A stretch of DNA of 64,000 bases, taken from positions 68,770 through 132,769 of the forward strand of contig JANNXA010000007.1 of assembly GCA_031409275.1 (NCBI GenBank), given 5' to 3'. Source of the DNA: Planctomycetota bacterium. Lineage in GTDB: Bacteria; Planctomycetota; B15-G4; SIAN01. A model generated the notes under the pieces. The model saw only the letters and a program-made list of their open reading frames with translations. It was not told where the DNA came from and ran no database searches. The position numbers and the translations under genes were made by a program. Shown piece after piece: positions 17,222 to 51,221 of the stretch. Each line of letters opens with the position of its first letter. Positions within the stretch are counted from its first letter, which is position 1.

Positions 17222-18496
17222 CTACGGCGGTGCGCCGCTCTTGCCGCCCGCCTCGCCCGGCCTCTGCACTTCCGCCAGCAGCTCCTTCACCTTCGCCGCC
17301 ATCGCCTCGTCGCGCAGGTCCTTCGCGCGGATCACGCCTTTGGCATCGACGATGTAGATCGTCGGCCAACCGCTGACGTTCCACGCGCTCGCGATCGGGC
17401 CCGACGTGTTGCCGCCGTCCCAGAAGCTGCGCCAGGAGATGCCCTCCTTGACCATCGCGTCGCGCAGCACGTCCTTCGGATCGCTGTTGATGCCGACCAG
17501 GGCGAACGGCGCATCCTTCAGTTCAGCCACGAGCGACCGCTCGTGCGGGATCATGGCCCGGCAAGGGCCTCACCAGAAACCCCAGAAGTCGAGCACGACC
17601 ACCTTGCCGCGGTAGTCCGACAGCTTGAACTTCACGCCGTCGAGGTCTTCGCCCTCGATCTCCGGCGCCACCTTGCCGATCTGCAGGTTGCGCAGCTCGA
17701 ACAGCTGCGCCTCCGCCATCTTCCCGAGCGAACCGCGCCGCGGATGCGACACGTCGGCGAACTCCTTCGTCACCTTCTCGAACAGCGCCTCGCTCGCGGC
17801 GGTGTCGGCGGCGACGTCGGACTGCTCGAGGAAGGCGATGAACTCGTCCCCGTAATACTGGCGATAGCTCGGGCCCTGCTCCGCGTCGGCCTTGATGCTC
17901 TCCCAGCGTTCGCGCAGGCTCGCGTGGCTGGCGAGTCGCCACGCCAGCGTGATCGTCGCGAAGCCCTGCACGTCGTGGTGCGGGCTGCTCGCGATGACGG
18001 CGCGCAGGAACGGCTCGACCTTCATCGAGTTGGGGCCGTAGCGCAGCGACCCGATCAGGTCCGCGAGCGCCGGGCTCGCCAGATGGTCGGCCTGCAGCGT
18101 GTCGAGGATCTGCTCCGCGACCGCGCGTTCCTGATTCTGGCGCAGCACCCAGGTGAAGCACTCGATCGCGAGCGGATCGCCCTTCGCCTGCTGCCCGATC
18201 GCCAGGATGCGCGGCACGTACTCCGCCGCCTCGGGATAGCTCTCGGCGACCTTCTGCTTTTCCTCGTCGCTGGTCGCCGCCTTGTAGCGCGCGGAGAAGT
18301 CGTTCTGCTTCTTCATGTACTCGTCGCGCAACGCGACGAACTGCTCGCGCAACGACTCGACCGTCGTTGCCGCCGCGGCTCGAGCGGCCGGCGTCTCCGC
18401 AGCGGGTGCGACCGGAACGGGCGGTGCGCCTTGTTGGGGAGGCGCGGCAATCGGCACCGCGCACGCCAGCAACGCGCCCTGCATCCATCGAACCAT
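17222..18496 (-). CDS. exported TlpA/thioredoxin-like selenoprotein (UGPC; Sec at residue 309), 424 aa
   Basis: ORFs 17570..18757 and 17222..17554 share a frame and are joined by TGA 17570-17572: VVLDFWGFW-TGA-GPCRAMIPHERSLV; AGGAGG RBS; signal peptide; WNVSGWPTIYIVD. Confidence 0.88.
17528..17545 (-). promoter_or_regulatory. putative bacterial SECIS hairpin CACGAGC-GGTC-GCTCGTG
   Basis: 7-bp perfect stem with GGUC loop starting 31 nt 3' of the in-frame UGA; identical in the paralogue. Confidence 0.75.
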
Positions 18497-28129: not shown

Positions 28130-30445
28130 CTACTCTTCATCCGCCGGGGCATCGGCGTTCGGGCTGATCAAGAACTCGATTCCAGCATCGAGTTGAAAGT
28201 TGCCGCTGCCGTCGGGCGCGAGGTCGCCGAAACTCCATGTGATCACGCTGCCGCGGCGCTGCTCGTGGCACTTGGTGCACGATTCAGGGACCGGGAGCGC
28301 GATCCAGTCGAGCTCCTCGCGACGCCGGTCGGTGATGGTCAGCGGAACGACGCACGGAAGCGGTTCGCCGAATCGCAGGTCGAGCACCATCGGTTCGCTC
28401 TGGTAGCCACCGCAGCGCACCGTGACCGTCAAGAGCGCGCGCGGCAGCGGTGCCAGCGCGAACGCGTCGGGACGCGTGCTCGTGGCTTCGAGTCCTGCCG
28501 CGGAGAGTTCCGGCTCGTTCGCCGCGAGCACCAGCGAATCGCCTTCGGCGCGCGCGCGATCGAGGCGATCGGCGCCGTTGTCGCCGGCGAGGACTCGAAT
28601 CGCGCCGTCCGACGGCGCGACCAGCCAGTCGCCGAGATCGGTCGTGGCCTCGTTCACGCGGTACACGGTGAGAGCCCGCCCCAAGGAGATCGTGATCGCC
28701 TGGTTGACCGCGCCATCGCCTTCTGGCTCCACGGCATCGGCATTCAGCGGCACCAACGGCTCGCCCACCGAGGCACGCACCGCCTCGACATCGGGCTTCC
28801 AGTTTCCTTGCGCGATCACCTTGCCGTCGCGCTCGATGGTGAACTCGAGGTCGGTCGGAGTCTCCTTGTGGAAGCTCGACCAGTCGCCACTGAAGAGGGC
28901 GCCGCGCGCGTGACGCAGCTCGATGCGCGCGAGGGTTGGCGCACTGACCTCCAGCGATTGCCAGACGTAGCCGCCACGCGTCACTTCCACGCGTCGCTGC
29001 TCCACGATCTGCCGCGCGGGATCGAAGGCGCGCAGGAAGTAGGTGCCCTCCGCCAGCTGCTGGAAGCGGAAGCTGCGATCTCCGGTCAACGTGAACCAGG
29101 TCGGTTCGTCGCCTTCGCCACAGCCGTGCGCCGGCTCCGTTTCTTGCCCCTTGCTGCGCTCCGATTCGACCCGCGGCGCCAGGCAGTCGGCGCAGCGGCG
29201 GCGGCCGTAACCGCGCAACTCGACCTGCACCGGCGCGTCGAGCGCGAGGTGGCGCGCGATGACGTCGCCCTCGATCACGCCATTGCCGCGCGCCATCACG
29301 ACGTGGCCGAGGTCGAGCGGGAGCGCCGGGTCGACGGTGAACTCCGGGAGCTCGAGCGGCTCGTAGCCGCGCGCGTGCAGCCGCGCCGTCCAGCGGCCCG
29401 CGGTCAGCGCCGCGTCGATCGCCGCGCCGCTGGTGGTCTCGGCGAAGCGCTGTTCCGACAAGAAGCGCACCGCCACTTCGCCTTCGATCGGCAGGCCGCT
29501 GTCGCGATCGAGGACTTGCAGATGGACGCGGCCCGCCTGCGGCAGCGCCACCTCGGCGCCCGCCCCCGCAGAGCCGTCGCTCCCGACGAGCTCGCGCTGC
29601 GCGCCCAGTGCCGCCGCGTCGGGCAACGCCGCACTGTGCGCTGGATCGGCCAGTGGCGCGTCGGCTCGCGGTGCATCGAGACGCGCCCGCACGCCACCCA
29701 TCGATGGCGGCAACCAGCTCGACCGCGTCGTGACGCCCGCGACCACGACCGTCACGCCGGCGAGCCCGGCCAGCAGCCAACCCTTCACCGCCATGATCGA
29801 GACTCCTGCCACGCACGCCGCACTCGTCGCGGTCGCCAACACCCCGCCACTCGCCGCCGTCGCACCGACCGCCGCCGTCTTCCAGCCCGCCACCGGAAGC
29901 AACAACGGGACCCACGCCTGCGCCCCGAACTTCGTGTCGAGCTGCGCGCGCAACCGATCGAGTCCGCGGCGCACTCGGACCCGCACGGTGTCGGCCGGAA
30001 GGCCGACTCGCGCGGCGATCTGCGCCGTCGTGAGCCCTTCATGGAAGCGCAGCAGCAACGTCGTGCGCTCCGGTTCGCGCAAGTCGAGAACGGCGCGCGC
30101 CAACGTTTGTTCGAGCTCGACCTGGGCGACCAGCTCCTGCGTCGAGGGCAGCGCTTCGTGGCGCGCCGCCGCCTGCTCGCGAGCATCTCGCCGCGACTCG
30201 CCACGCCGCCACTTCGCGGCCAGATGGCGCGTCGCCGTGGCCAACCAGCTGCGCAGCGCCGAGGACTCGCGCGGCGGATGCTCGAGCCCCGCGATCAGCA
30301 CCTCTTGCGCGACATCGTCCGCCGCCGCCGGCGCCACCAACCGCCGCGCCAACGCGCGCACGAAGCCGCGCTGCGCCAGCAACCGCGCGGCGTGCGGCGA
30401 TGCGTGCATCGGATCGTCGTCGAAGGAGTTGATGGGCGGGTTCAT
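28130..30445 (-). CDS. ECF sigma-70 factor fused to a long C-terminal extension (TM, beta-sandwich domains, CxxCH)
   Basis: ADDVAQEV, LRSWLAT, LLRFHEGLTTAQIA...TVRVRVRRG; hydrophobic stretch; ARGYEP and LAEGTYFL; CTKCH. Confidence 0.85.
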   Translation of the reverse strand: MNPPINSFDDDPMHASPHAARLLAQRGFVRALARRLVAPAAADDVAQEVLIAGLEHPPRESSALRSWLATATRHLAAKWRRGESRRDAREQAAARHEALPSTQELVAQVELEQTLARAVLDLREPERTTLLLRFHEGLTTAQIAARVGLPADTVRVRVRRGLDRLRAQLDTKFGAQAWVPLLLPVAGWKTAAVGATAASGGVLATATSAACVAGVSIMAVKGWLLAGLAGVTVVVAGVTTRSSWLPPSMGGVRARLDAPRADAPLADPAHSAALPDAAALGAQRELVGSDGSAGAGAEVALPQAGRVHLQVLDRDSGLPIEGEVAVRFLSEQRFAETTSGAAIDAALTAGRWTARLHARGYEPLELPEFTVDPALPLDLGHVVMARGNGVIEGDVIARHLALDAPVQVELRGYGRRRCADCLAPRVESERSKGQETEPAHGCGEGDEPTWFTLTGDRSFRFQQLAEGTYFLRAFDPARQIVEQRRVEVTRGGYVWQSLEVSAPTLARIELRHARGALFSGDWSSFHKETPTDLEFTIERDGKVIAQGNWKPDVEAVRASVGEPLVPLNADAVEPEGDGAVNQAITISLGRALTVYRVNEATTDLGDWLVAPSDGAIRVLAGDNGADRLDRARAEGDSLVLAANEPELSAAGLEATSTRPDAFALAPLPRALLTVTVRCGGYQSEPMVLDLRFGEPLPCVVPLTITDRRREELDWIALPVPESCTKCHEQRRGSVITWSFGDLAPDGSGNFQLDAGIEFLISPNADAPADEE

Positions 30446-36235: not shown

Positions 36236-38791
36236 TCAAGGAGGCTTCTCCTGCGGCAACGCCGCGAGCTTCGCCTGAATCTCATCGGCGAGCTCGCGGC
36301 GACCGGCCGCCTCCGCGGCCAGCAGTTCGAGCCCGAACTGCTTGCGCTGCGCACGATCCGGCAGCGGACCAGCGACCTCGCGCTCCGTCCGATCGGCCGC
36401 GAGGAACTCGACCGCTTCGGCGGCCCGGCCGAGCTTCACGAGCGAGAGCACCAGTTCGCGTCGCGCGCGCGACGCCGGCGGCGTGTCGGCGCCGTAGGAA
36501 TCGCGCAGCACGGGATAGCAGGCTTGAGCGAGCGGCAGCGCCTCCTCGAACCGGCCGAGCTTGACGAGGATCTCCGCGAGCTGGTTCGCGAACTGCTGCG
36601 TCAAGGCGCTCGCGTCGCCGTCCAGGCGACGGTTCGCGGCAAGCGCGATCTCCTGCGCGCTGCGTGCTTCGTCGAGCCGCTCCGCGTCCATCAGCATCCC
36701 GGCGTGGTTGTGGAGCGTGTTGATCGTCAGGCTGTGATCGTCGCCGAGCGTCCGGCGCAGCTCCGCGACGGCGTGCTCGCTGTCGCGCAGCGCCGCATCG
36801 AGCTGCCCCGCCTCCTTCTCGAGCTGCGGCAGCGTCGCGTGCGTCATGAGCGTGTCGAGGTCGGTCACCCCGAACGCGGCGCGCCGCGCCTCGAGCGTCC
36901 GGCGCATCAGGGTCGCCGCCTCCTCCGCGGCGCCCGAATCGGCGAGCGCGAGCGAGAGGTTGTGGGCGATCGTCCACGTGATGCGATGGTGTTCGCCGAG
37001 CTTCTCGCGGCTCTCGGCGAACGCCGCGCGCATCCCGGCGACCACGCTTGCACCCTCTCCCGTCTGCTGAAGGCACGACCACAAGGTCTGGCGCACGTTC
37101 AGGACCAGCTCGGGATCGGGATCCTTCACTCCGGCCAGTCGGGCGAGCGCGTCCTCCGCGACGACTCGCGCCTCCTCTTCACGTCGCGCGGCGACGAGCG
37201 CGGCGCAGAGATCGAGCAGGCTCGTCACGGACTCTGAGCTCAGGCGTCCGTACCGTTCATCGCACCACTTTCGCACCGACTCGAGGAGCTCGATCGCTGC
37301 CGCATGCTGTCCGAGCCCGGCAAAGCACGTCGCGAGCGTCCGCTCGAGCGACACGCGCACCGCTGGCCGGCCGGCGTACTTCATCGTCAGCTCGCGCCGC
37401 GCTTTGTCGAGCAGGTCGACGACCTTCACCTCTTTGCCGTCGATGCCGGGGTCGGCGGCCGAGAGCATCTGCCGGACGAAGTCGTTGTGCTCGTTCGCGG
37501 CGTCCAGTGAATCGAGCGCCTCGCGGTTTGCCTTTTCGAGGCGAGCGTTCACGCCGCGCTGCTGCAGCCAGAGAGCCGTCGGCGTGCCGACGACGAACAG
37601 GAACGCGCATGCGACGGCGACGGTCGCCATCGTGTGGCGCCGCACGAAGCGGACGGAGCGCTGCGCTGCGCCGATCGGGCGCGCATGCACCGGGCGGAAC
37701 TCGAGGAAGCGGCGCAGGTCGGCGGCGAGATCGGCGGCGGTCGCGTAGCGGCGCGCGCGATCGCGTTCGAGCGCCATCAAACCGATCGTCTCGAGATCGC
37801 GCGGGAGCTGCGGGTTGTGCTTCCGCGGCGCGAGCGGCGCGTCGCGCTGGATCGCGCGCAGGATGTCCGGCGTCGTCGCGCCATTGAACGGGACAGCGAG
37901 CGTCAGCAGTTCGTAGAGCGTCGCGCCGAGCGACCAGACGTCGCTCTGCGCGTCCACCTGCGCGAGGTCGCCGGCCGCCTGCTCGGGCGAGACGTAGTGC
38001 GCCGTCCCCATGAAGTCGCCGCTGCACGTCAGCGACGCCTCGCTCTCGACGCTCGCGAGGCCGAAGTCGAAAAGGAGTGCCCGCCCATCGGGCCGCACCA
38101 TCACGTTCGACGGCTTCACGTCGCGGTGGACGACGCCGTTCGCGTGCGCGTGGGCGAGCGCGTCGGCGATTTCCGCGACGAGGCGCGCAATCCCGGCGAC
38201 GTAGGACGGCTCGCGGACCGGCGCACCGGCGCCAAACGCGGCCGCCGCGAAGTCGGCGCCGGTCAGGCTTTCGCATGGACGATCGAGCGCGCGCAGCGCG
38301 GCGAGCACGGCGGCGAGCGTCCGTCCTTCGACCCACTCCATCGCGAACCACGGTGTCCCGTCGTCCTCACCGATCTCGTAGATCGGGACGATGCTCGGAT
38401 GGCGCAGCCGCGCGACCGCGCGCGCCTCGCGCTCGAATCGATCGCGCGCGCGGCCGCTCGATTGCCAGCGGCCGGGGAGGATCTTCAGCGCGACGCGGCG
38501 CGCGAGCGCCGGCTGCTCGGCGAGGAAGACGGCGCCCATGCCGCCGCGGCCGATCTCCGCGACGATCTCGAAGCCGCCGATGCGACGGCGCGTGAGCGGC
38601 CGGCGGACCGCGACCTTCTCGGCAAGTTGCCAGGTCTGCTCGATCGCGGCGCGCAGCTCGGGGCGATCGGGCGCCACCGCGGCGAGGTCGACGGCGCGGC
38701 CCGCCGCGATCGCCTCGACGAATTCGCCGAGCAGGCGATCGAGCAGTTCGGAAGCGCCCGGGTCGGGCGGCGGCGTGATGGGCTCGCTCAT
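36236..38791 (-). CDS. Hanks-type Ser/Thr protein kinase with TM helix and C-terminal TPR repeats
   Basis: GRGGMGAV, ALK, HRDVKPSN, DFGLA, GTAHYVSPEQ, DVWSLG; TM; LG.HH..T TPR repeats. Confidence 0.93.
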   Translation of the reverse strand: MSEPITPPPDPGASELLDRLLGEFVEAIAAGRAVDLAAVAPDRPELRAAIEQTWQLAEKVAVRRPLTRRRIGGFEIVAEIGRGGMGAVFLAEQPALARRVALKILPGRWQSSGRARDRFEREARAVARLRHPSIVPIYEIGEDDGTPWFAMEWVEGRTLAAVLAALRALDRPCESLTGADFAAAAFGAGAPVREPSYVAGIARLVAEIADALAHAHANGVVHRDVKPSNVMVRPDGRALLFDFGLASVESEASLTCSGDFMGTAHYVSPEQAAGDLAQVDAQSDVWSLGATLYELLTLAVPFNGATTPDILRAIQRDAPLAPRKHNPQLPRDLETIGLMALERDRARRYATAADLAADLRRFLEFRPVHARPIGAAQRSVRFVRRHTMATVAVACAFLFVVGTPTALWLQQRGVNARLEKANREALDSLDAANEHNDFVRQMLSAADPGIDGKEVKVVDLLDKARRELTMKYAGRPAVRVSLERTLATCFAGLGQHAAAIELLESVRKWCDERYGRLSSESVTSLLDLCAALVAARREEEARVVAEDALARLAGVKDPDPELVLNVRQTLWSCLQQTGEGASVVAGMRAAFAESREKLGEHHRITWTIAHNLSLALADSGAAEEAATLMRRTLEARRAAFGVTDLDTLMTHATLPQLEKEAGQLDAALRDSEHAVAELRRTLGDDHSLTINTLHNHAGMLMDAERLDEARSAQEIALAANRRLDGDASALTQQFANQLAEILVKLGRFEEALPLAQACYPVLRDSYGADTPPASRARRELVLSLVKLGRAAEAVEFLAADRTEREVAGPLPDRAQRKQFGLELLAAEAAGRRELADEIQAKLAALPQEKPP

Positions 38792-38795
38792 CGTG

Positions 38796-39440
38796 TCAGG
38801 TCGCGCCACGCTGCTGCGTCGCCTTCGTGCGCAGCACCTCGAGCGCCTGCGCGTAGAGCGTTGAGCCTTTGCGGAAACGGTACCACGCAGCGGAAAGGCC
38901 GATCGAGAGCTCGGCCGCGATCTGCTCCATCGGCTTCTCCTCGAATAGGTAGAGCCGCACGACCGGCTCGATCTCTTCAGGCAGCGAAGCGAGCGCGTCG
39001 GCCATCACCTGTGCTCGCTCGCGCTGGATCGCGATACGGCTTGGCGTCGTCGAGCCGGCCGGCAGTCGCTGCGAGAAGGGACGGTCGTCGCCGTCGTCGA
39101 GATCGCTGAAGGCGGACATCTGTCTCGCTCCGCCGCGCTTGCCGGCCGTCGCGCGCCGCGCGAGGTCGGTGAGGCGGTTGCGCGCGATCGTGAGGATCCA
39201 GGCGCGATAGGCGCGGACCCCCTCCCAGCGATGCTGTTCGCGATCGCGCCAGGCGAGGGCGAGCGTCTCCTGGAAGACGTCCTCCTCGGAGACGAAGCTC
39301 GCGAGTTGCTTGCTCATCCCGCGTCGAAAGATGACCAGCAGCGAATCGGGGCCGATCGCCTCGACGAGCCGATCCCACTGAGCGGCGTCACAATGCGGCG
39401 CAACGCCGCTGAAGTCCTGGGAGTCACTAGGTTCCGTCAT
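38796..39440 (-). CDS. ECF RNA polymerase sigma factor (kinase-associated type)
   Basis: EDVFQET, RAWILTIARNRLTD, STTPS, region 4 EQIAAELSIG; directly upstream of the kinase. Confidence 0.88.
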   Translation of the reverse strand: MTEPSDSQDFSGVAPHCDAAQWDRLVEAIGPDSLLVIFRRGMSKQLASFVSEEDVFQETLALAWRDREQHRWEGVRAYRAWILTIARNRLTDLARRATAGKRGGARQMSAFSDLDDGDDRPFSQRLPAGSTTPSRIAIQRERAQVMADALASLPEEIEPVVRLYLFEEKPMEQIAAELSIGLSAAWYRFRKGSTLYAQALEVLRTKATQQRGAT

Positions 39441-39777
39441 CGTGCTCGCCGGGCTCCGAATGCGCGTGGTGCGCGAGAGGAGATGCGAAGCCTCGCCACT
39501 TTGCGGGTCGAATCGCGCTTCTGGAAGACCGCGGAGGCTGGCGAATGGTACGCGCGAGCGCGCGAGGACCTCGCCATCCTCGGATTCTCTGAAGCGGCCG
39601 CGATCGGAAGCACTCCGCATCGTCCTCGAATGTCGTGACCTGCGCGGCGCGTCGCTGCCGCCACTTCGACTGCCACGCCGGCAGAGGTCCGCCCCGAGAT
39701 CTGCGCCATCCGCGGTGAGCGGCACGTGGCGATGATGGGTCCGCTCGCGCGATGGGGCGCGAATGGGAGGTCGATCG

Positions 39778-43641: not shown

Positions 43642-44853
43642 TCAGCGCCCGCCGGCCGATGGCGGTGCGGCCCGCTTTGCTTTGATTTCGGCGAGCAGTT
43701 CCTCGACCTTCTTCCCCAACTCGTCGTCGCGCAGGTCCTTCGCGCGGATCACTCCGTTCGCGTCCAGGACGAAGATCGTCGGCCATCCGTGGACGTTCCA
43801 GTTCGAGGCGATCGGACCGGTCGTGCCGCCGCCATCCCAGAACGAGCGCCAGGTGATCCTCTCGCTTGCCATCGCCTTGCGCAGCGTCTCCTTCGGATCA
43901 CTGTTGACGCCGACCAGTGCGAAGGGCTCGTCCTTCAGCTTCTCCACGAGCGACCGCTCGTGCGGGATCATTGCCCGGCATGGGCCTCACCAGAATCCCC
44001 AGAAGTCGAGCACCACGACCTTCCCGCGGTAGTCCGAGAGCTTGAAAGCGACGCCGTCGACGTCCCATCCGACGATGTCGGGCGCGACCTTGCCGACCGC
44101 GAGGTGGCGCAGCGCGTAGAGCTCGCTCTCGACGGTCGTCCCCAGCGGCTTGCCGTTTCGCTTGAGCTGCTTCCATTCGGCCAGCACGTCTTCGAGGAGG
44201 TCCTCCGACTCCGCGCCGAGCTCCTCCGGGTCGCGCGCTTTCAGGTCGTCGATCGTCTCCTGACCGTAGTGCATCGCGTTCGCAGCGTCGCCGGCCGGCG
44301 GTGACGGCGATGAGTGGATGGAGGCCGCGAGTTCCGCAAGCCCGCTCAGCACCTGTGCCAGCGAATAAGTCGCCTGCCCCTTCGTCTCCCAATCGGCGCT
44401 CTTCGCGAGGACCGCGCGCAGGAAACGCTCGGCACCGAGCGATCGAGAGTAGAGGGTCATCGCGCTCACGGCGCCGATCACCCTGGGATCGGCGGCGTGG
44501 TCCTCGAGCAGTGCGTAGGCCGGCGCCTTCTGGCGCTCGTTCTCGCCGTGCAGCAGGATCCAGGAACAGGCGTCGATCGCGGCCGGAGTCCCCTTCGCTG
44601 GGGCGAGAAGCGCGAGGAAGCGCGGGATGTACTCGGGGATCTTCGGCATGTCGGCGCTGAAGATCCGCTGGCGCTCCTCGTCCGTGGTTGCGGCGGCGTA
44701 CTTCTGCTCGAAGGCGGCGCGCGCCGTGTCGTACTCCTTGACGAGCGCGGCGACCTGCGCCGAGACATCGGTCGTTGCCGACGATGGCGACGCCGCCGGC
44801 GATGGCTGGCGAATCGGCGCGACGAGCGCCAGGAGCAGGATCCAAGCGTGCAT
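43642..44853 (-). CDS. second exported TlpA/thioredoxin-like selenoprotein (UGPC; Sec at residue 289), 403 aa
   Basis: ORFs 43987..44868 and 43642..43971 share a frame and are joined by TGA 43987-43989: DFWGFW-TGA-GPCRAMIPHERSLV; signal peptide. Confidence 0.88.
43945..43962 (-). promoter_or_regulatory. putative SECIS hairpin, identical to 17528..17545
   Basis: CACGAGC-GGTC-GCTCGTG at the same distance from the UGA. Confidence 0.75.
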
Positions 44854-45736
44854 GGGATCACCTTCCACGGAAAGGGGCGCCTACAAGACGGCGCCATTGT
44901 GACGGCGGACGACGGACTCTGCCAGAAAACGCATCAGCGCTTCATTGCGCCGGACCAGTACTCCGACGGTCCGAGCCAGCCGTAGCGGATGCCGTCGGTC
45001 GTGAAGCTCGGTGCGCTCGTAGCCGCCGTCGTCGCCGAGCACCGCGACGCCGTCGTAGAACCACGGCGCGCTTTCCCAAGAAAAGTAGGCGTCGATCGAG
45101 ACGGAGTAGAGATCGACGCTCGGCTCAGGCGGACCTCCGCCTCCCAAAGAGCCGCGTTGACACGTCGGCGCCACCGTCGCGATGACAAGCATCGCAAGGA
45201 AGTCGCGGGCAGCTCGGCGAGGCGGCGCGCTGCAGGCGTCGGTCGACGACTCATGCGCACTCCGGATCGAACCGTCGGCGTCGCGGGGTACTCCTAGAAC
45301 AAACCATGCCGAGTCGGCCCTGCGGCGAAGAGCGGTGGCGGCGGCCTCACCGGGCACACTTCACCGTGATCGCGCTCGATTCACTGCGGGGCCGACACCG
45401 TCCGGCTCAGGCGTTCGACCGTCGGTTTTCGGCGGAGCTGTTGCCTCGACGCCGAGCAAGCTGGAGAGACCCGGTCGCGCGATCGGGCGGCGAAGCGCGA
45501 CGCCGTTGCAACGCTCCGAACGAGAAGAAGGTGCCCTCGACCCCGCCGGTCGCGCTCACGGCGGCTCAGCGTTCTCCCTGACCCTTCCCGCGAAGGGAGC
45601 ACGGGGCAGGGTGCGGAACTCGGCTTGCAATGCTCAAGCGTTCCGATCCCGAGGGTCGATGTTTCGGGGCGTTTGGCCCCAATCGCGGCACCGAGCTGTC
45701 CCGATCGACCCAAGAACCCACTGGAGCCTTTGATGA

Positions 45737-46870
45737 CTGCCTCGAGACCGTTCAGCTTTTGGCGCGTTTGCCATTCCATTGCTGCTCGCGATGGTGGGGG
45801 CGAAGGAAGCTTTCGGTCAGGGCTGAGTCGCCGCGCGTTCCAGTGCGCCCGTGGTTGGCGCACAAGGCAGCCCCTACCTCGCTCCCGATCAGTGGCAGTT
45901 CAACTTCGGCTATCGCTACCAGTTCTCGGACCGCCACTTCACCGGCACGAGCGAGGACGATGACCGTCAGAGCGGTGAGGCCCAGGTCAAGAACACCGTC
46001 CATCTGTTCGACTTCGGCTTCACGCGTGGTTGGAGCAAGCAGACGAGCATCTCGTTCTCGCTGCCGTTCCTCATCGCGAAGCGGTCGATCCCTGGCGTCA
46101 TTCGAAACACCTCCGGCGACATCGTCCGCGTGCCGAATGGCGAGAACCAGACTGGATCCCAGGGCATCGGCGACGTGAGCATCGTCGCCCGCCACTGGCT
46201 CCTCGACGTCGACGACCATCTCGATCAGAACATCTCGCTTGGCTTCGGCATCAAGTTGCCGACTGGCGATCCTGGGACCGAGGACTCGGTGGCGGTACGC
46301 GACAGCAAGGGCACCACCGACGACCCTTCCGATGACACGTTCACCAACGTGGTTCGCACGAACGATCAGTCGATCCAGCCGGGAGACGGCGGATTCGGAT
46401 TCATCCTCGACATGATGGCGTTCAAGCGGCTCGGCCTGTTCACTCCGTACGTGAGCGCCAGCTACCTCTTCAATCCGCAGGAGAAGAACGGCGTCGAGAC
46501 CTACCGCACGCTGAAGGGCGAGGAGATCATGTCGATCGCCGATCAGTACATCGCGCGGCTCGGAACCATGATCAACATCCCGGCCTGGGAGGGCGTGTCC
46601 GCCGGCATCGGCGGTCGTATCGAAGGCGTCCCGGTTCGCGACGCGATCGGCCAGGATGCAGGCTTCCGTCGGCCGGGCTACGCGCTGTCGATCGAGCCAC
46701 AACTGGTCTTCGCGCACGAGAAGGATGTCTTCTCAATCGCGATCCCGGTCGCGGTGCTTCGCGCGCGACACCGCAGCGTTGCCGATCAGGCGAGCGGCAT
46801 TCCGGGCCAACATGGCGACGCGGCGTTCGCCGACTGGGTTCTGCTGTTCAACTGGTCGCGCCGGTTCTGA
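45737..46870 (+). CDS. outer-membrane beta-barrel-like protein, probable selenoprotein (mature N-terminus QG-U-VAAR)
   Basis: ORF 45851..46870 extends upstream through TGA 45824-26 into a signal peptide (RDRSAFGAFAIPLLLAMVGAKEAFG); GIGDV and GIKLPTG motifs; C-terminal Phe; start uncertain (CTG 45737, or ATG 45733 with a 1-nt shift). Confidence 0.72.
45843..45863 (+). promoter_or_regulatory. putative SECIS hairpin GTGCGCC-CGTGGTT-GGCGCAC
   Basis: Perfect 7-bp stem starting 16 nt after the in-frame TGA; G-containing loop. Confidence 0.55.
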
Positions 46871-46946: not shown

Positions 46947-47204
46947 CATGGCTCGTAATGCAGCCGAGTGGGGCGGTGATCGCGAGCCGGTTGCACGGAG
47001 AGCGCCGGCGCCGATGAATGATCGGTTCTGCGTTCGCAGCCGCTTCCGCGGTTCAATTTCGATGCTGGCTTGTGGTTGCTGGTGCGGAAGATCGTCGGAG
47101 CGGGGGCGAGTCGACCGCTTCGGCCGATTGCTCGCACCCGATGCGCTCGGTTCGCGCCGAGCCGCGGCGCGTACCATGCCACACCGCGAAATGGAGCGCT
47201 CGTG

Positions 47205-50200
47205 ATGTACCTCGGGCAGATCTGGATCGCGTCGCGCTTGCTCATCGCTGCCGGCGTCCCCGGCGAGGCACCGAAGCTCGAAGTCGGCAAGCCGATCAAG
47301 GGAGAGATCGGCGCCGACGCGCCGGTCGTCACGACGCCTGCGCTCGCGGCCAACTACACCGATGGGCCGACGCGCGCGAGCGCTTTTCGGCTCGTCTTGC
47401 CGAAGGGCGAGGCGGGACCGCTGACCCTCGATCTCGTCTCGCATCTCTTCGACGCCTACCTCGTCGTGCGCGCCGCGGATGGGACGTCACTCGCCGAGAA
47501 CGACGACGGCTGGCTGCGAACCCACGCGCAGCTCGTCCTCGACGCGACGCTGCTGGCGAAAGGCCCGCTCACCGTCGAAGCCGCGGCGCTCCACGGCGAG
47601 ACGGGGCCGTTCGAGCTCTCGCTGGTGCGTGGTGCCAGAGCGAAACCGGACGACGCGACGCTCACGCAGCTCGTACTCGAGGATCTGCGTGGGGAGGCGC
47701 GGGCCGTCGAGGCGGCGCGCGGACCCGATTCTCCGCGACTCGCGCAGGTGCTCCTCGACCTTGGGCGCGCGCTCGTCCGCGCCGGCGCTTTGGACGAGGC
47801 CGTGGCCGTGTTCGAACGAAGCCTCGACCTCAGCCGCCGCGTCTTCGGGGAGCATCATCGTGAAGCCGGCGTGCGTCGGAACGAGATCGGCGCGGCACTC
47901 GTTCACAGTGACCGCCTCGACGACGCGGTCATGCACTTCACCGAAGCGCTCGCCTGCTTCGACGTCGACGACCTCGCCGAATCGGAGAACGTCGAGCAGA
48001 TCCGCCTCGGGCTCGCGGTCGCGCAAGGCAGGCTCGGCCGTGACGGCGACGCGCTGCCGCAGTTCGAGGCGATCCTCGCGTCGATCGAGCGGCGAGCTGG
48101 TCCAGACGATCCGGCGCTGGTCGAGCCGCTGATTCGCGTCGCTCTCACGCGTCTCGCACTCGGGCTCCCGGGCGTCGATGCGCTGCGCGACCGCGCGCTG
48201 GCGATCTTCCGCGCAGCGAACGAGCCGATCGATGCGAATCGCTGCTACCTACTGAACAATCTGGCGACCCTCTGCACGCAATTGGGCGATCACGCGCGCG
48301 CACGGGACCTGAGCGAAGAGACATGGCACGCGGCGGCCCATGTTTTCGGCGAAACGCATCCGAATACGCTGGCACAGCTTCGGTACCTGGCGCAGGAACT
48401 GGTGCACCTTGGTCGCCATGACGAGGCGCGCGAACTCGCCGAACAGGGGCTCGCGATCAGCGAGCGCGCCTTCGGACCCGACAGCCTCGAGGTCGCAATG
48501 GCGCTCGACAACGTCGGCTTCTGCGCCCACCAAGATGGTGACACGCTCGCCGCGCACCGCTGCTTCGTCCGATCGCTCGCCCTCGAGGAGAGGCTCCTGG
48601 GATTCGACCACCCGACCACCTTGTTGACGGCGCGCAATCTCACGTTCCAGCTCAAGTTGCTCGGTGAGGTTGCGGCCGCGATCGAACTTTCCGAGCGGAC
48701 GATCGCCGCGAAGGTGGCGCGTTTCGGCGCTGAATCGGACGCGGTGGTCGACGCGCTCGGCAGCTTCGCGTACTTGCTACGGGACGCGGGGCTGCCAGGT
48801 CGGAGCGTCGAGGTCCGCGAACGGGTGCTCGCGACCCTGGAGCAGCGGCTGGGTCCTGACGATCCACGCACGCTCGACGCGCTCGACTTGCTGGGCATCA
48901 GCTGCGGAACGATGGGGGACTGGCCTCGAGTCGCTTCGATCGGTGCGGAGCTCTTGCGCCGTGCCGAGCGATCGAGCGGTCGCGGGTCGATCGACTACGC
49001 CCGCGGGCTGTTGCGATCGGCGCAGGTCGCGCGAGCGGGCGGGGATCCGCAGCGTGCGAAGGCGCTGATCGAGGAAGCGATCGAGGTCGAAGAGAAGCAC
49101 CCGATCACGAGCGACCTCGAGCTGGACGCATCGCTGTGGCTCCTCGGCAACGTCCTCAGCGACGACCTCGACGATCCGCGCGCGGCGGCCGACGTGTTGG
49201 AGCGCCGAATTCCGCTCGCGGAACGGGTCTACGGCAATCTTGATGGCGTGAGCACGAAAGCGCGCGCCCTGTTCGGCAGCACGCTCGCGTTGGGCGGGCA
49301 GTACGAGCGGGCCGAACCGGTCCTCGTGGCCGCGTTGCAGTTCGCGACGCAGCTCCAAGGACAGGACAGCCCGCTCGTCGCCGAGATCCGCGACCACCTC
49401 GGTCACACGCTGGACGGGCTAGGCAAACGGCGCGAGGCGCTCGAGCAATGGCTGGCCGCGATGGATTCGGGCGAGCGCCAGCTGCAGGCGAGCTTGCGCA
49501 GCGCGAACGCCGAGGAGCGGCTCGACCTCGTCCGCAGTCAGCGCCATCAACTGAATCACGTGCTCAGCGCGGCCGCGACCGGCGAGACAGCGATCGAGCC
49601 GGCGGCGCTTCACGAACGCATCTTGGTGTGGAAAGGGCAGGTCGCACGGAGTCTTGCGGCCACTCGCGAGCAGCTTTTCGACGCGCCAGGAGCGGGCGGG
49701 TCGGGTTCGGCGGCAACGACGGCAACGGCGGCGATCACGGCGCTCTTCGACGCGCAGCGGCGCCTCTCGCGCCTTGCCTTCTCCGATCCGGCCGACGTGA
49801 AGGACCTCGCCGATTCGCTGGCGCAGGTGCGCGCCGAGGTCGGTCAGCTCGAGCTCGAGGTCGGGAAGCTCGCGCCGGCGAAGGTGGCGGCGATGGCGTC
49901 GCTCGCGGAGGTGCGCGCGGCCCTTCCAGCGGATGCGGCCGCCATCGATTTCGTCGTCTACAACCGCTACGTGCGGGGAGCGACGGCGGAGAACGGCAAG
50001 TGGGTGCAATCCCATTGGGGCGAGGCGCGGCTCGCGGCGTTGGTCATGACCGCGGATCGGCACGAGTCGCGACTCGTCGACGTCGGCGACTGCGATGCGC
50101 TCGACGCCGCCGTCACGGCGTTCCTCGAGCAGATCGAGTCGAGCCGCGGTGCAGCGCCGGCTGCGGTGGCGAGCGGCGCCGGCGACGCCGGCCGACTGCT

Positions 50201-51221
50201 GTCGGAGCGGCTGTGGGCACCGCTCGCACCGCTGCTCGCTGGCGCGAAGCTCGTCGTGATCTCGCCTGATGCCTTCCTCGGCAAGCTGCCGTTCCAGCTG
50301 ATCCCCGACACCGAGGGCAAGCCGCTGATCGAGACGCTCGCCATCGTCTGCGTGCAGGATCTCTCGGCGTTGCCGAAGCTCGTCCTCCCGCGTGAGGCTG
50401 CGTCCGCGACGGCATCGCTGCTGGTCGCGGGTGGCGTCGACTACGACGCGCAAGACACGGCCGCGGGAGCTCCCGTGGCCGCCGGCGGCGGCACCCGCAG
50501 CGCCTCGACCCGCGCCTTCACGAGCTTCTGGGAGCCGCTGCGTGCGACGTCCGCTGAAGCGTCGGCGGTCGCGCGGCTCCACAAGCTTGCATTCGCGGGC
50601 ACGGCAACGCAGGTCGAACTCACCGGCGCGCTCGCCAGCGAAGAGCGCGTGAAGGAGGAGCTGCCGCGCGCGCGCTTCGTCCATCTCGCGACCCACGGCT
50701 TCTTCGAGCCGGAAGGGACCCCGTCGATGCTCGCGACGGTGCGCACGCCCGAAGTCGGCAGCAAGGACGCGCCCGTCGCTGCCCCGCGCCTTCTTCCCGG
50801 CTTCCTGTCGGGGATCGTCTGCGCCGGCGCGAACGTCAAGTCGCCGACCCATCAGGTGCGGGACGACGGCTATCTGAGCGCCGAGGAGCTCTCGTGGTTC
50901 GACTTGCGCGGGGTCGAGCTCGTCGTGCTGTCGGCGTGCGAGACGGGGCTTGGTCGACCCGAGCCAGCCGAAGGGTTGCTCGGGCTGCGTCGGACGTTGC
51001 GCGATGCTGGCGTGAGGACGGTGATCAGTTCGCTGTGGAAGGTCGATGACGAGGCGACCTGCGAGCTGATGAAGCGCTTCTACGTCAACCTCTGGCAGAA
51101 GAAGCAGGGCAAGCTCGAGGCGCTGCGCGGCGCGCAGCTCTCGATGCTGCACGATGGCAACGCGAAGTGGCGCCGGCCCGCGGCGTGGGCGGCGTTCGTG
51201 CTCGACGGAGCGTGGAACTGA
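47205..51221 (+). CDS. TPR-repeat CHAT (caspase-like) domain protein with N-terminal PPC-like domain
   Basis: FDAYLVV...ENDDG; many G.DHP-type TPRs; ISPD..L..LPF, HLATHG, LSACETG, SLWKVDD, EALR.AQ, WAAF. Confidence 0.9.
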   Translation: MYLGQIWIASRLLIAAGVPGEAPKLEVGKPIKGEIGADAPVVTTPALAANYTDGPTRASAFRLVLPKGEAGPLTLDLVSHLFDAYLVVRAADGTSLAENDDGWLRTHAQLVLDATLLAKGPLTVEAAALHGETGPFELSLVRGARAKPDDATLTQLVLEDLRGEARAVEAARGPDSPRLAQVLLDLGRALVRAGALDEAVAVFERSLDLSRRVFGEHHREAGVRRNEIGAALVHSDRLDDAVMHFTEALACFDVDDLAESENVEQIRLGLAVAQGRLGRDGDALPQFEAILASIERRAGPDDPALVEPLIRVALTRLALGLPGVDALRDRALAIFRAANEPIDANRCYLLNNLATLCTQLGDHARARDLSEETWHAAAHVFGETHPNTLAQLRYLAQELVHLGRHDEARELAEQGLAISERAFGPDSLEVAMALDNVGFCAHQDGDTLAAHRCFVRSLALEERLLGFDHPTTLLTARNLTFQLKLLGEVAAAIELSERTIAAKVARFGAESDAVVDALGSFAYLLRDAGLPGRSVEVRERVLATLEQRLGPDDPRTLDALDLLGISCGTMGDWPRVASIGAELLRRAERSSGRGSIDYARGLLRSAQVARAGGDPQRAKALIEEAIEVEEKHPITSDLELDASLWLLGNVLSDDLDDPRAAADVLERRIPLAERVYGNLDGVSTKARALFGSTLALGGQYERAEPVLVAALQFATQLQGQDSPLVAEIRDHLGHTLDGLGKRREALEQWLAAMDSGERQLQASLRSANAEERLDLVRSQRHQLNHVLSAAATGETAIEPAALHERILVWKGQVARSLAATREQLFDAPGAGGSGSAATTATAAITALFDAQRRLSRLAFSDPADVKDLADSLAQVRAEVGQLELEVGKLAPAKVAAMASLAEVRAALPADAAAIDFVVYNRYVRGATAENGKWVQSHWGEARLAALVMTADRHESRLVDVGDCDALDAAVTAFLEQIESSRGAAPAAVASGAGDAGRLLSERLWAPLAPLLAGAKLVVISPDAFLGKLPFQLIPDTEGKPLIETLAIVCVQDLSALPKLVLPREAASATASLLVAGGVDYDAQDTAAGAPVAAGGGTRSASTRAFTSFWEPLRATSAEASAVARLHKLAFAGTATQVELTGALASEERVKEELPRARFVHLATHGFFEPEGTPSMLATVRTPEVGSKDAPVAAPRLLPGFLSGIVCAGANVKSPTHQVRDDGYLSAEELSWFDLRGVELVVLSACETGLGRPEPAEGLLGLRRTLRDAGVRTVISSLWKVDDEATCELMKRFYVNLWQKKQGKLEALRGAQLSMLHDGNAKWRRPAAWAAFVLDGAWN

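Follow-up and report, generated by a model that had tools for sequence, protein, structure and literature searches.

The minus strand of this 64,000-nucleotide stretch of DNA (the window) contains a gene (44853..43642; 403 codons plus a stop) whose frame is interrupted by a single in-frame TGA at codon 289 (43987..43989). Is this TGA a stop codon, an error, or a codon for selenocysteine (Sec)? The translated peptide around codon 289 is FWGFW-U-GPCRAM, and the site is the W-U-G-P-C of TlpA/ResA type. By translation and alignment, U289 takes the first Cys position of CxxC, and the codon for the resolving Cys292 of the same UxxC motif lies at 43978-43980 (minus strand). In public collections, the gene is split into a 288-amino-acid product and a 109-amino-acid product, which we regard as a systematic mis-annotation and correct here by reading the gene through the TGA.

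We are confident in the following reading. The TGA is likely translated as Sec because SelB likely binds a predicted hairpin with a GGUC loop, 24 bases downstream; and the product, a U-x-x-C enzyme, is probably exported and likely acts in the periplasm as a reductant of disulfides.

Around the gene, a purine run resembling a Shine-Dalgarno sequence lies 4 nt 5' of the ATG (44858..44866, minus strand; found by eye) and is a putative ribosome-binding site. A scan for sigma-70 promoters found none, and there are three weak terminator-like sites, versus 1.2 expected. A tRNA scan of the whole window found none, and an Rfam search returned two chance-level matches, neither of them relevant.

The protein and its probable activity

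The N-terminus (44794..44853, minus strand) is a likely signal peptide: judged by hydropathy only, it has a hydrophobic core at about residues 3-11 and no Cys. Hydropathy over 9 residues reaches 3.0 there, and the best later window of 19 residues reaches 1.1, with no later transmembrane stretch. By the same measure, 114 of 150 homologues have a hydrophobic N-terminus. A hydrophobic N-terminus without a later membrane stretch suggests export.

The next domain is all-helical (residues 25-250; 44104..44781, minus strand), and the structure model arranges its helical pairs as a TPR/HEAT-like solenoid (pLDDT 94.4). Its best fold match has a Z score of 10.0 (rmsd 2.8, 117 aligned residues), and in the model such matches look generic for TPR/HEAT-like helical repeats. 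This domain does not match any Pfam family and has no Foldseek match at E = 0.001; HEAT_2 is touched by 8 of 103 members of the alignment.

The thioredoxin domain is of the TlpA/ResA/DsbE type (43669..44103, minus strand), as indicated by Pfam and by fold matches. PF00578 (E = 3e-20, the best match) and PF08534 cover residues 253-384. For the model of the full protein (pLDDT 92.8, pTM 0.87), the top fold matches are DsbE (3gl3; Z = 20.1, rmsd 1.7, 135 aligned residues), ResA (2f9s; Z = 20.0), and oxidoreductases from Bacteroides; across the structures of ResA, DsbE (CcmG), and TlpA (2f9s, 3gl3, 4grf, 1jfu), Z is 19.9-20.1 and rmsd is 1.7-2.3 over about 135 residues. The protein shares with these enzymes the W-C/U-x-x-C motif and, presumably, an extracytoplasmic location. 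In contrast to them, it has Sec instead of the attacking Cys, it has the helical domain, and it lacks a membrane anchor. Also, no cytochrome c maturation genes were seen beside the gene, and the NCBIfam scores are under the cut-offs (65 bits versus 170 for ResA, NF002854; 51 versus 230 for TlpA, NF047696; 32 versus 123 for DsbE, TIGR00385; and 35 versus 300 for WAxxUGC, NF041054). No NCBIfam model reaches its cut-off for this protein, and this includes the selenoprotein models. Some relatives lack the helical domain and others have long C-terminal extensions, so the Sec domain is modular.

Across the loci of homologues, we found no conserved gene neighbourhood, and none that pointed to a substrate. 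Comparing the neighbours in the window to these loci gave one unrelated sulfatase match, and recurring neighbours were seen only among close kin.

Selenoproteins of this kind have been described before. UXXC thioredoxin-fold families were reported in 2005 (PMC1088965, in its available part), and the available part of Table 1 of PMC13188914 lists predicted families of Prx-like thiol:disulfide oxidoreductases (PF00578, UxxC), Redoxin (PF08534, UxxC), and thiol-disulfide isomerase-like proteins (cd02966, UxxC). Compared by table description, our protein resembles these UxxC families in its PF00578/PF08534 thioredoxin fold, in having Sec first in UxxC, in having a UGA with a downstream hairpin, and in having Cys homologues. 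It differs in its helical domain of 225 residues without a Pfam family, in its likely signal peptide, in having four TGA copies and one Cys copy in a single genome, and in not reaching any NCBIfam cut-off. Judging from sequence, it is likely a thiol-disulfide enzyme that contains selenium and is probably exported, and its kind has been described before. Planctomycetes are described as having the Sec machinery and a few selenoproteins (PMC4807772, in its available part). Word searches of the main texts of PMC13326102, PMC12013277, and PMC9402790 found no mention of TlpA or of Planctomycetes (their supplements and BSepDB may hold members), and Planctomycetota are not named in the searched and available portions of the main text of a 2026 review (PMC13188914) or of the BSepDB and deep-Sep papers. 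The titles and abstracts that we searched, as far as these are available, do not include any on this architecture or on an invariant hairpin, and a literature search by motif words gave nothing relevant. This family would add a multi-copy, probably exported subfamily of selenoenzymes to Planctomycetota.

Established knowledge of these protein families outlines the steps from SelB binding onward. SelB with Sec-tRNA would bind the GGUC hairpin and Sec would be inserted at position 289; the protein would be exported by its signal peptide; Sec289 would attack and Cys292 would resolve during disulfide reduction; and a DsbD-type protein would re-reduce the enzyme, supplying the electrons. One gene of the source genome is DsbD-like, and its own UxxC site has a TGA. 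The helical domain may be a substrate-docking module, and the Cys paralogue in this genome could serve when selenium is short.

The same selenoprotein might instead reduce peroxides or sulfenic acids, like peroxiredoxins or GPx, or it might be an isomerase, which would change the functional step only. We consider this unlikely, although several annotations lean this way: the best Pfam match (PF00578) is AhpC-TSA, BCP peroxiredoxins reach Z = 17.4 in the fold search, the Atlas cluster nearest to the helical domain carries the automatic name "peroxiredoxin family," and the catalogue names such proteins "Prx-like" (PMC1088965, in its available part). However, the motif here is FWGFW-U-GPC, that is, W-U-G-P-C and not the TxxU of Sec peroxiredoxins (PMC1088965 and PMC13188914, in their available parts); the full Sec peroxiredoxin motif, PxxxTxxU as defined in the available part of PMC13188914, is not present. 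Furthermore, the top fold and NCBIfam matches are DsbE, ResA, and TlpA, and CGPC is the commonest motif of the Cys forms (48 of 99). We prefer the reduction of disulfides as the activity.

The predicted SECIS and its conservation

The predicted SECIS (43945..43962, minus strand) is a hairpin with a stem of 7 bp and a GGUC loop (43952-43955), and it encodes HERSLV. The hairpin begins 24 nt 3' of the TGA and its loop begins 31 nt 3' of it. The 18-mer alone folds at -10.5 kcal/mol (z = -3.97 versus shuffles), and the folding of the 60 nt 3' of the TGA is no better than that of shuffles (z = -0.49). According to the legend of Fig. 2 of PMC13188914, a bacterial SECIS has a loop of 3-9 nt with a G within its first two bases, a stem of 4-16 bp, a distance of 16-37 nt from the UGA, and an energy of at most -7.5 kcal/mol. 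The hairpin lies within all of these ranges (GGUC, 7 bp, 31 nt, and -10.5 kcal/mol), and its stem, spacing, and energy are inside the bSECISearch consensus as well. But a relaxed scan for the consensus also passes 9 of 17 Cys genes, so the rule discriminates poorly in GC-rich DNA, and we rejected the scan as sole proof.

The element is similar to that of E. coli fdhF, whose sequence we folded here: both have a GGUC loop and lie within the coding region after the UGA. The loop starts 31 nt after the UGA in our gene and 18 nt after it in fdhF. Unlike other bacterial SECIS elements, this one has a perfect 7-bp stem that is sequence-identical across distant genomes, without variation from gene to gene. 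A GGTC loop is also found in three other candidate selenoprotein genes of the source genome.

The initial annotation argued from a second copy about 26 kb away with the same TGA. This copy exists: a paralogue on the minus strand (18496..17222; 424 codons plus a stop) has its TGA at 17570-17572 and its hairpin at 17528-17545, and the two hairpins are exact copies, 26.4 kb apart. As described, the N-terminal domain is strongly diverged (36% amino acid identity, 85 of 235 aligned positions, versus 72%, 115 of 159, in the thioredoxin domain), and the 42 nt 3' of the TGA differ at two wobble positions (Pro CCA/CCT and Ala GCA/GCC), both of them outside of the 18-nt hairpin. What had been concluded from the two copies, namely synonymous constraint over the hairpin, is not clearly seen between these two alone: in the rest of the thioredoxin domain, 68 of the 100 codons that can be compared are identical as well, so finding all six hairpin codons identical has P of about 0.10 and is not significant. 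Among windows of six codons, 14 of 101 are all-identical between the two copies, and an identical run of 29 nt occurs elsewhere in the domain, ending at residue 377.

In the source genome, the family members with TGA number four (two in the window and one on each of contigs C9 and C47), and there is a single member with Cys, on C37. The exact 18-mer is common to all four TGA paralogues and is absent from the Cys paralogue. Outside of the hairpin, 18 of 32 codons are identical in all four TGA paralogues, so the four-way identity of the hairpin has P of about 0.03. A search of the 5.6-Mb genome finds the exact 18-mer four times, each time 24 nt past W-TGA-G-P-C and always oriented so that the mRNA has a GG loop.

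We then turned to homologues from three sources: 41 related genomes, 26 of which gave 46 matches in all, with 30 of these used as loci; a scan of GTDB with six peptide patterns, none of which covered the hairpin codons, for 67 loci; and stretches of the source genome. After removing 8 duplicate rows and 3 alignments without coverage of the TGA site, 104 homologous sites remained, all in one column of the alignment: 86 with TGA, 17 with Cys, and 1 other. Of the 86 TGA homologues, 73 have the exact 17-mer; of the 17 Cys homologues, none has it. The closest named locus (L046) is 83% identical. Record titles place most of the 67 named loci in Planctomycetota or a taxon within it, and identical hairpins occur under the titles Planctomycetota, Verrucomicrobiota, and Acidobacteriota. 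All of the inner six pairs are preserved in 74 of the 86 TGA genes and in none of the 17 Cys genes, a GGTC loop is seen in 76 of the 86 TGA genes, and the distance from the TGA to the hairpin is invariant. The terminal pair is looser (paired in 65 of 86 TGA genes). In context, the pairing probability of the stem is above 0.5 for 57 of the 73 holders of the 17-mer (median 0.95).

Conservation of the hairpin codons across the 86 TGA homologues far exceeds codon bias. The observed share of the modal codon, versus its expected share, is 0.95 versus 0.21 for Arg (CGG), 1.00 versus 0.30 for Ser (TCG), 0.99 versus 0.38 for Leu (CTC), 0.99 versus 0.70 for His, 0.97 versus 0.70 for Glu, and 0.74 versus 0.39 for Val. 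For the 30 codons 5' of the TGA and for the codons past the hairpin, the modal share is near expectation. In the predicted structure, the wobble bases of the His, Glu, Ser, and Leu codons are each paired to the first base of a codon in the other arm, the wobble of Arg is the second G of the loop, and only the wobble of the terminal Val is free. With five of six wobbles either paired or forming the loop G, the structure would explain why we see identity instead of covariation and why HERSLV is pinned. HERSLV is encoded by 75 of 86 TGA genes but by only 2 of 99 CxxC motifs from Cys forms, which have 80 different hexamers at this position. (The 99 motifs are from 95 of the best 150 database proteins; the other 55 had no motif under the pattern used.) The hairpin appears to freeze this peptide. 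The Cys forms favour H-E-R-x-L-V (H in 48, E in 68, R in 75, L in 80, and V in 72 of 99), so the hairpin probably arose on an already close sequence. This would be an unusually clean case of an RNA signal constraining a protein sequence, and a test object for the specificity of SelB; it does not alter the understanding of Sec insertion.

A second synonymous constraint lies outside of the hairpin, at the fourth codon after the TGA (43975..43977, minus strand): this codon is CGG in 69 of the 79 TGA homologues that have Arg there, versus an expected share of 0.20. For an upstream mini-helix, considered as a possible cause, the pairing probability has a median of 0.02 and exceeds 0.5 in 15 of 73; one apparent compensatory change in this mini-helix rests on sister sequences.

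We also built a quick tree from 130 columns, excluding the hairpin codons; many of its forks are open, and related sequences do not count as independent. On this tree, the labels require a total of 8 changes. Cys genes without the hairpin, including the Cys paralogue of the source genome, sit within the TGA-rich part of the tree, and one Cys gene that is nested among TGA genes (L099) has kept the 3' arm and lost the 5' arm.

Could the TGA encode Sec without the 18-mer being a working SECIS? The 18-mer might reflect protein constraint plus codon bias, gene conversion, or an inverted repeat in the DNA, or the real signal might be another or larger structure. The preference of Cys forms for a similar peptide, the constraint on CGG outside of the 18-mer, and the 10 TGA genes that do without the 18-mer speak for such an explanation, as does the near absence of covariation: the pairs hardly vary, a G-U replaces one inner pair in L052, and G-C stands in for C-G at the terminal pair of two sister sequences, both of which have lost the loop. 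Nevertheless, we view this as quite improbable. CGG is rare (0.16 of Arg codons genome-wide) but is fixed at the hairpin Arg in 76 of 80; the 18-mer is identical across a GC3 range of 0.52-0.98 (among the holders of the 17-mer) and across records from three phyla, which is beyond the reach of gene conversion; in the source genome, the exact 18-mer occurs nowhere except 24 nt after a TGA, oriented to give the GG loop; and the nested Cys gene lost one arm of the stem.

The 10 TGA genes without the hairpin have other hexamers (L021, L023, L024, L028, L030, L032, L034, L036, L037, and L093), so the hairpin is not universally required. On the quick tree, its absence needs 3 changes, 1 of which is forced by strongly supported branches. 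In seven of the nine genomes that hold these members (leaving aside L093), selA and selB are both over the cut-off; in G015, selA is in pieces and there is no selB match, and in G037 there is no selB match. All 5 of these genomes that were searched have a TGA-bearing selD; its G-loop hairpin is clear in G021 and G024, and in G017 it is plausible. Atypical SECIS elements are acknowledged in the available parts of PMC13188914 and PMC12013277. One tentative reading, which we think is probably not correct as a whole, is that this is a large uncurated subfamily in which one SECIS froze a hexamer across three phyla and several lineages kept the UGA without it, even though the hairpins of their selD genes are ordinary. 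The hairpin-less members would then insert Sec with a different SECIS, a more distant one, or none, and they would be natural cases with matched SECIS-bearing sisters as controls.

We made several other observations on these homologues. Seven genomes from the same order (G012, G014, G017, G020, G023, G028, and G036) have two selA matches and two or three selB matches each; G017 and G020 have both a Cys selD and a TGA selD, and these two genomes, together with G023, hold three of the members that lack the hairpin. Tandem copies of the family are present in one locus in nine cases (L054, L045, L052, L055, L056, L060, L072, L092, and L094), and one of the copies in L054 has U-G-R-S (the resolving Cys is replaced) yet retains the hairpin. 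A typical TGA member with the hairpin is on a contig titled Bifidobacterium (L057), which is probably a binning error.

Sec machinery in the source genome and its relatives

The source genome (5.59 Mb, 69% GC, 93% complete) encodes the machinery for Sec: selA scores 484 bits (cut-off 268), selB 334 (cut-off 242), and selD 338 (cut-off 125), and tRNA-Sec (selC) scores 76 bits (gathering threshold 47). selD itself carries one TGA. Among 41 close relatives, selA is found in 39 and selB in 39. In an even draw of 201 genomes from the phylum, 148 have a match to selA, and the TGA plus hairpin, searched for as a fixed pattern, is present in 30 (0 for the reverse-read control). All 30 holders have selA, and the pair is in 0 of the 53 genomes without a selA match (Fisher P = 7e-5, which is overstated by kinship and incomplete genomes).

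The same letters were found in other samples of one study (runs X4 and X2). One contig of run X4, 783 nt long, covers 43838-44620, including the TGA and the hairpin, with 0 differing letters, and two contigs of run X2 cover the gene with no differing letter; run X5, which has a small share, has no piece spanning the site. In the same runs, contigs that carry related genes have differences at 43968, 43972, 43981, and 43984, and, among the matches listed, there is no difference within 43945-43967 or at the TGA.

The initial annotation had concluded that this is a real selenoprotein gene with a functional SECIS and not an error or a pseudogene. The two-copy evidence offered for this does not carry it, but the conclusion itself is supported by the Sec machinery, the distribution of the 17-mer (73 of 86 versus 0 of 17), the co-occurrence with selA, and the contigs from other samples. 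It is very improbable that the TGA is a true stop (in a split gene or a pseudogene) or a sequencing error: the public gene calls are split there and a conserved Met six codons past the TGA (83 of 86 TGA homologues) could restart translation, but 86 of 104 sites have TGA and 17 have Cys in the same column, a stop at 289 would cut the modelled fold inside its active site, the contigs of other samples have the same letters, and the TGA plus hairpin is found only in genomes with selA. At least 95 open codons follow the TGA in all but 1 of the 86 TGA genes.

Other candidate selenoproteins and neighbouring genes

A divergent gene in the window (about 45737-46870, plus strand) has a TGA at 45824-45826 and a hairpin at about 45843-45863. 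It encodes a leader resembling a signal peptide, QG-TGA, and then an outer-membrane barrel similar to PF13557 (COG4313; Atlas score 0.98-0.99), with no match in Pfam or NCBIfam. In 7 of 8 loci, QG-TGA precedes a hairpin with the same two arms and a 7-nt loop (the eighth is broken), and in 4 of those 7 this hairpin is the lowest-energy fold. Among 120 database homologues, QGC is seen in 3, and 115 lack any Cys over their first 60 residues; most of these begin just past the site. The barrel family is absent from the 119 families of Table 1 of PMC13188914, in its available part, and is likely an uncatalogued selenoprotein family, judging from these alignments. A functional link between the TlpA-like gene and the barrel gene was considered and is not supported: the two are never together in the loci of relatives that were examined, which have short flanks.

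A coding-score scan of the source genome gave 150 TGA candidates, of which 22 were picked by motif and 20 were scanned. The candidates for read-through include MsrA/B, Trx7/PDZ (NF041199, over its cut-off), VPGUxxT (NF041383, over its cut-off), an AhpD-like protein, deiodinase/EF-hand, BCP, a DsbD-like protein, and several TlpA/Prx-like proteins (L114-L133; C16:170423, C45:88346, and selD on C40). The genome seems to be rich in selenoproteins, with roughly 25-28 genes; this count is a lower-quality estimate because the coding-score scan missed selD and the barrel gene.

Three signalling modules in the window are unrelated to the TlpA-like selenoprotein gene: a 771-amino-acid ORF with an N-terminus like an ECF sigma factor (28130-30445, minus strand), a pair of an ECF sigma factor and a Ser/Thr kinase-TPR protein (36236-39725, minus strand), and a TPR-CHAT protein (47070-51221, plus strand).

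Four FG-GAP propeller genes in the source genome have an in-frame TGA: L118 (C14:294193-298338), L127 (C34:63098-66049), L114 (C3:1660-2736), and L123 (C30:17230-18714). In two of these, ASPIC/UnbV is joined by a TlpA-like domain at the C-terminus, and the G-loop hairpins are clean; in the other two, the TGA is beside a Cys. The available part of Table 1 of PMC13188914 has no FG-GAP selenoprotein family. Four more TGA candidates are in Cys-like contexts, with no Pfam or NCBIfam match at the thresholds used: L120 (C23:24919-26358), L129 (C43:62020-64683), L115 (C6:1617-2738), and L116 (C7:2-691). Of these, L120 has a hairpin with a GGUC loop and L129 has one with a CGUGA loop.
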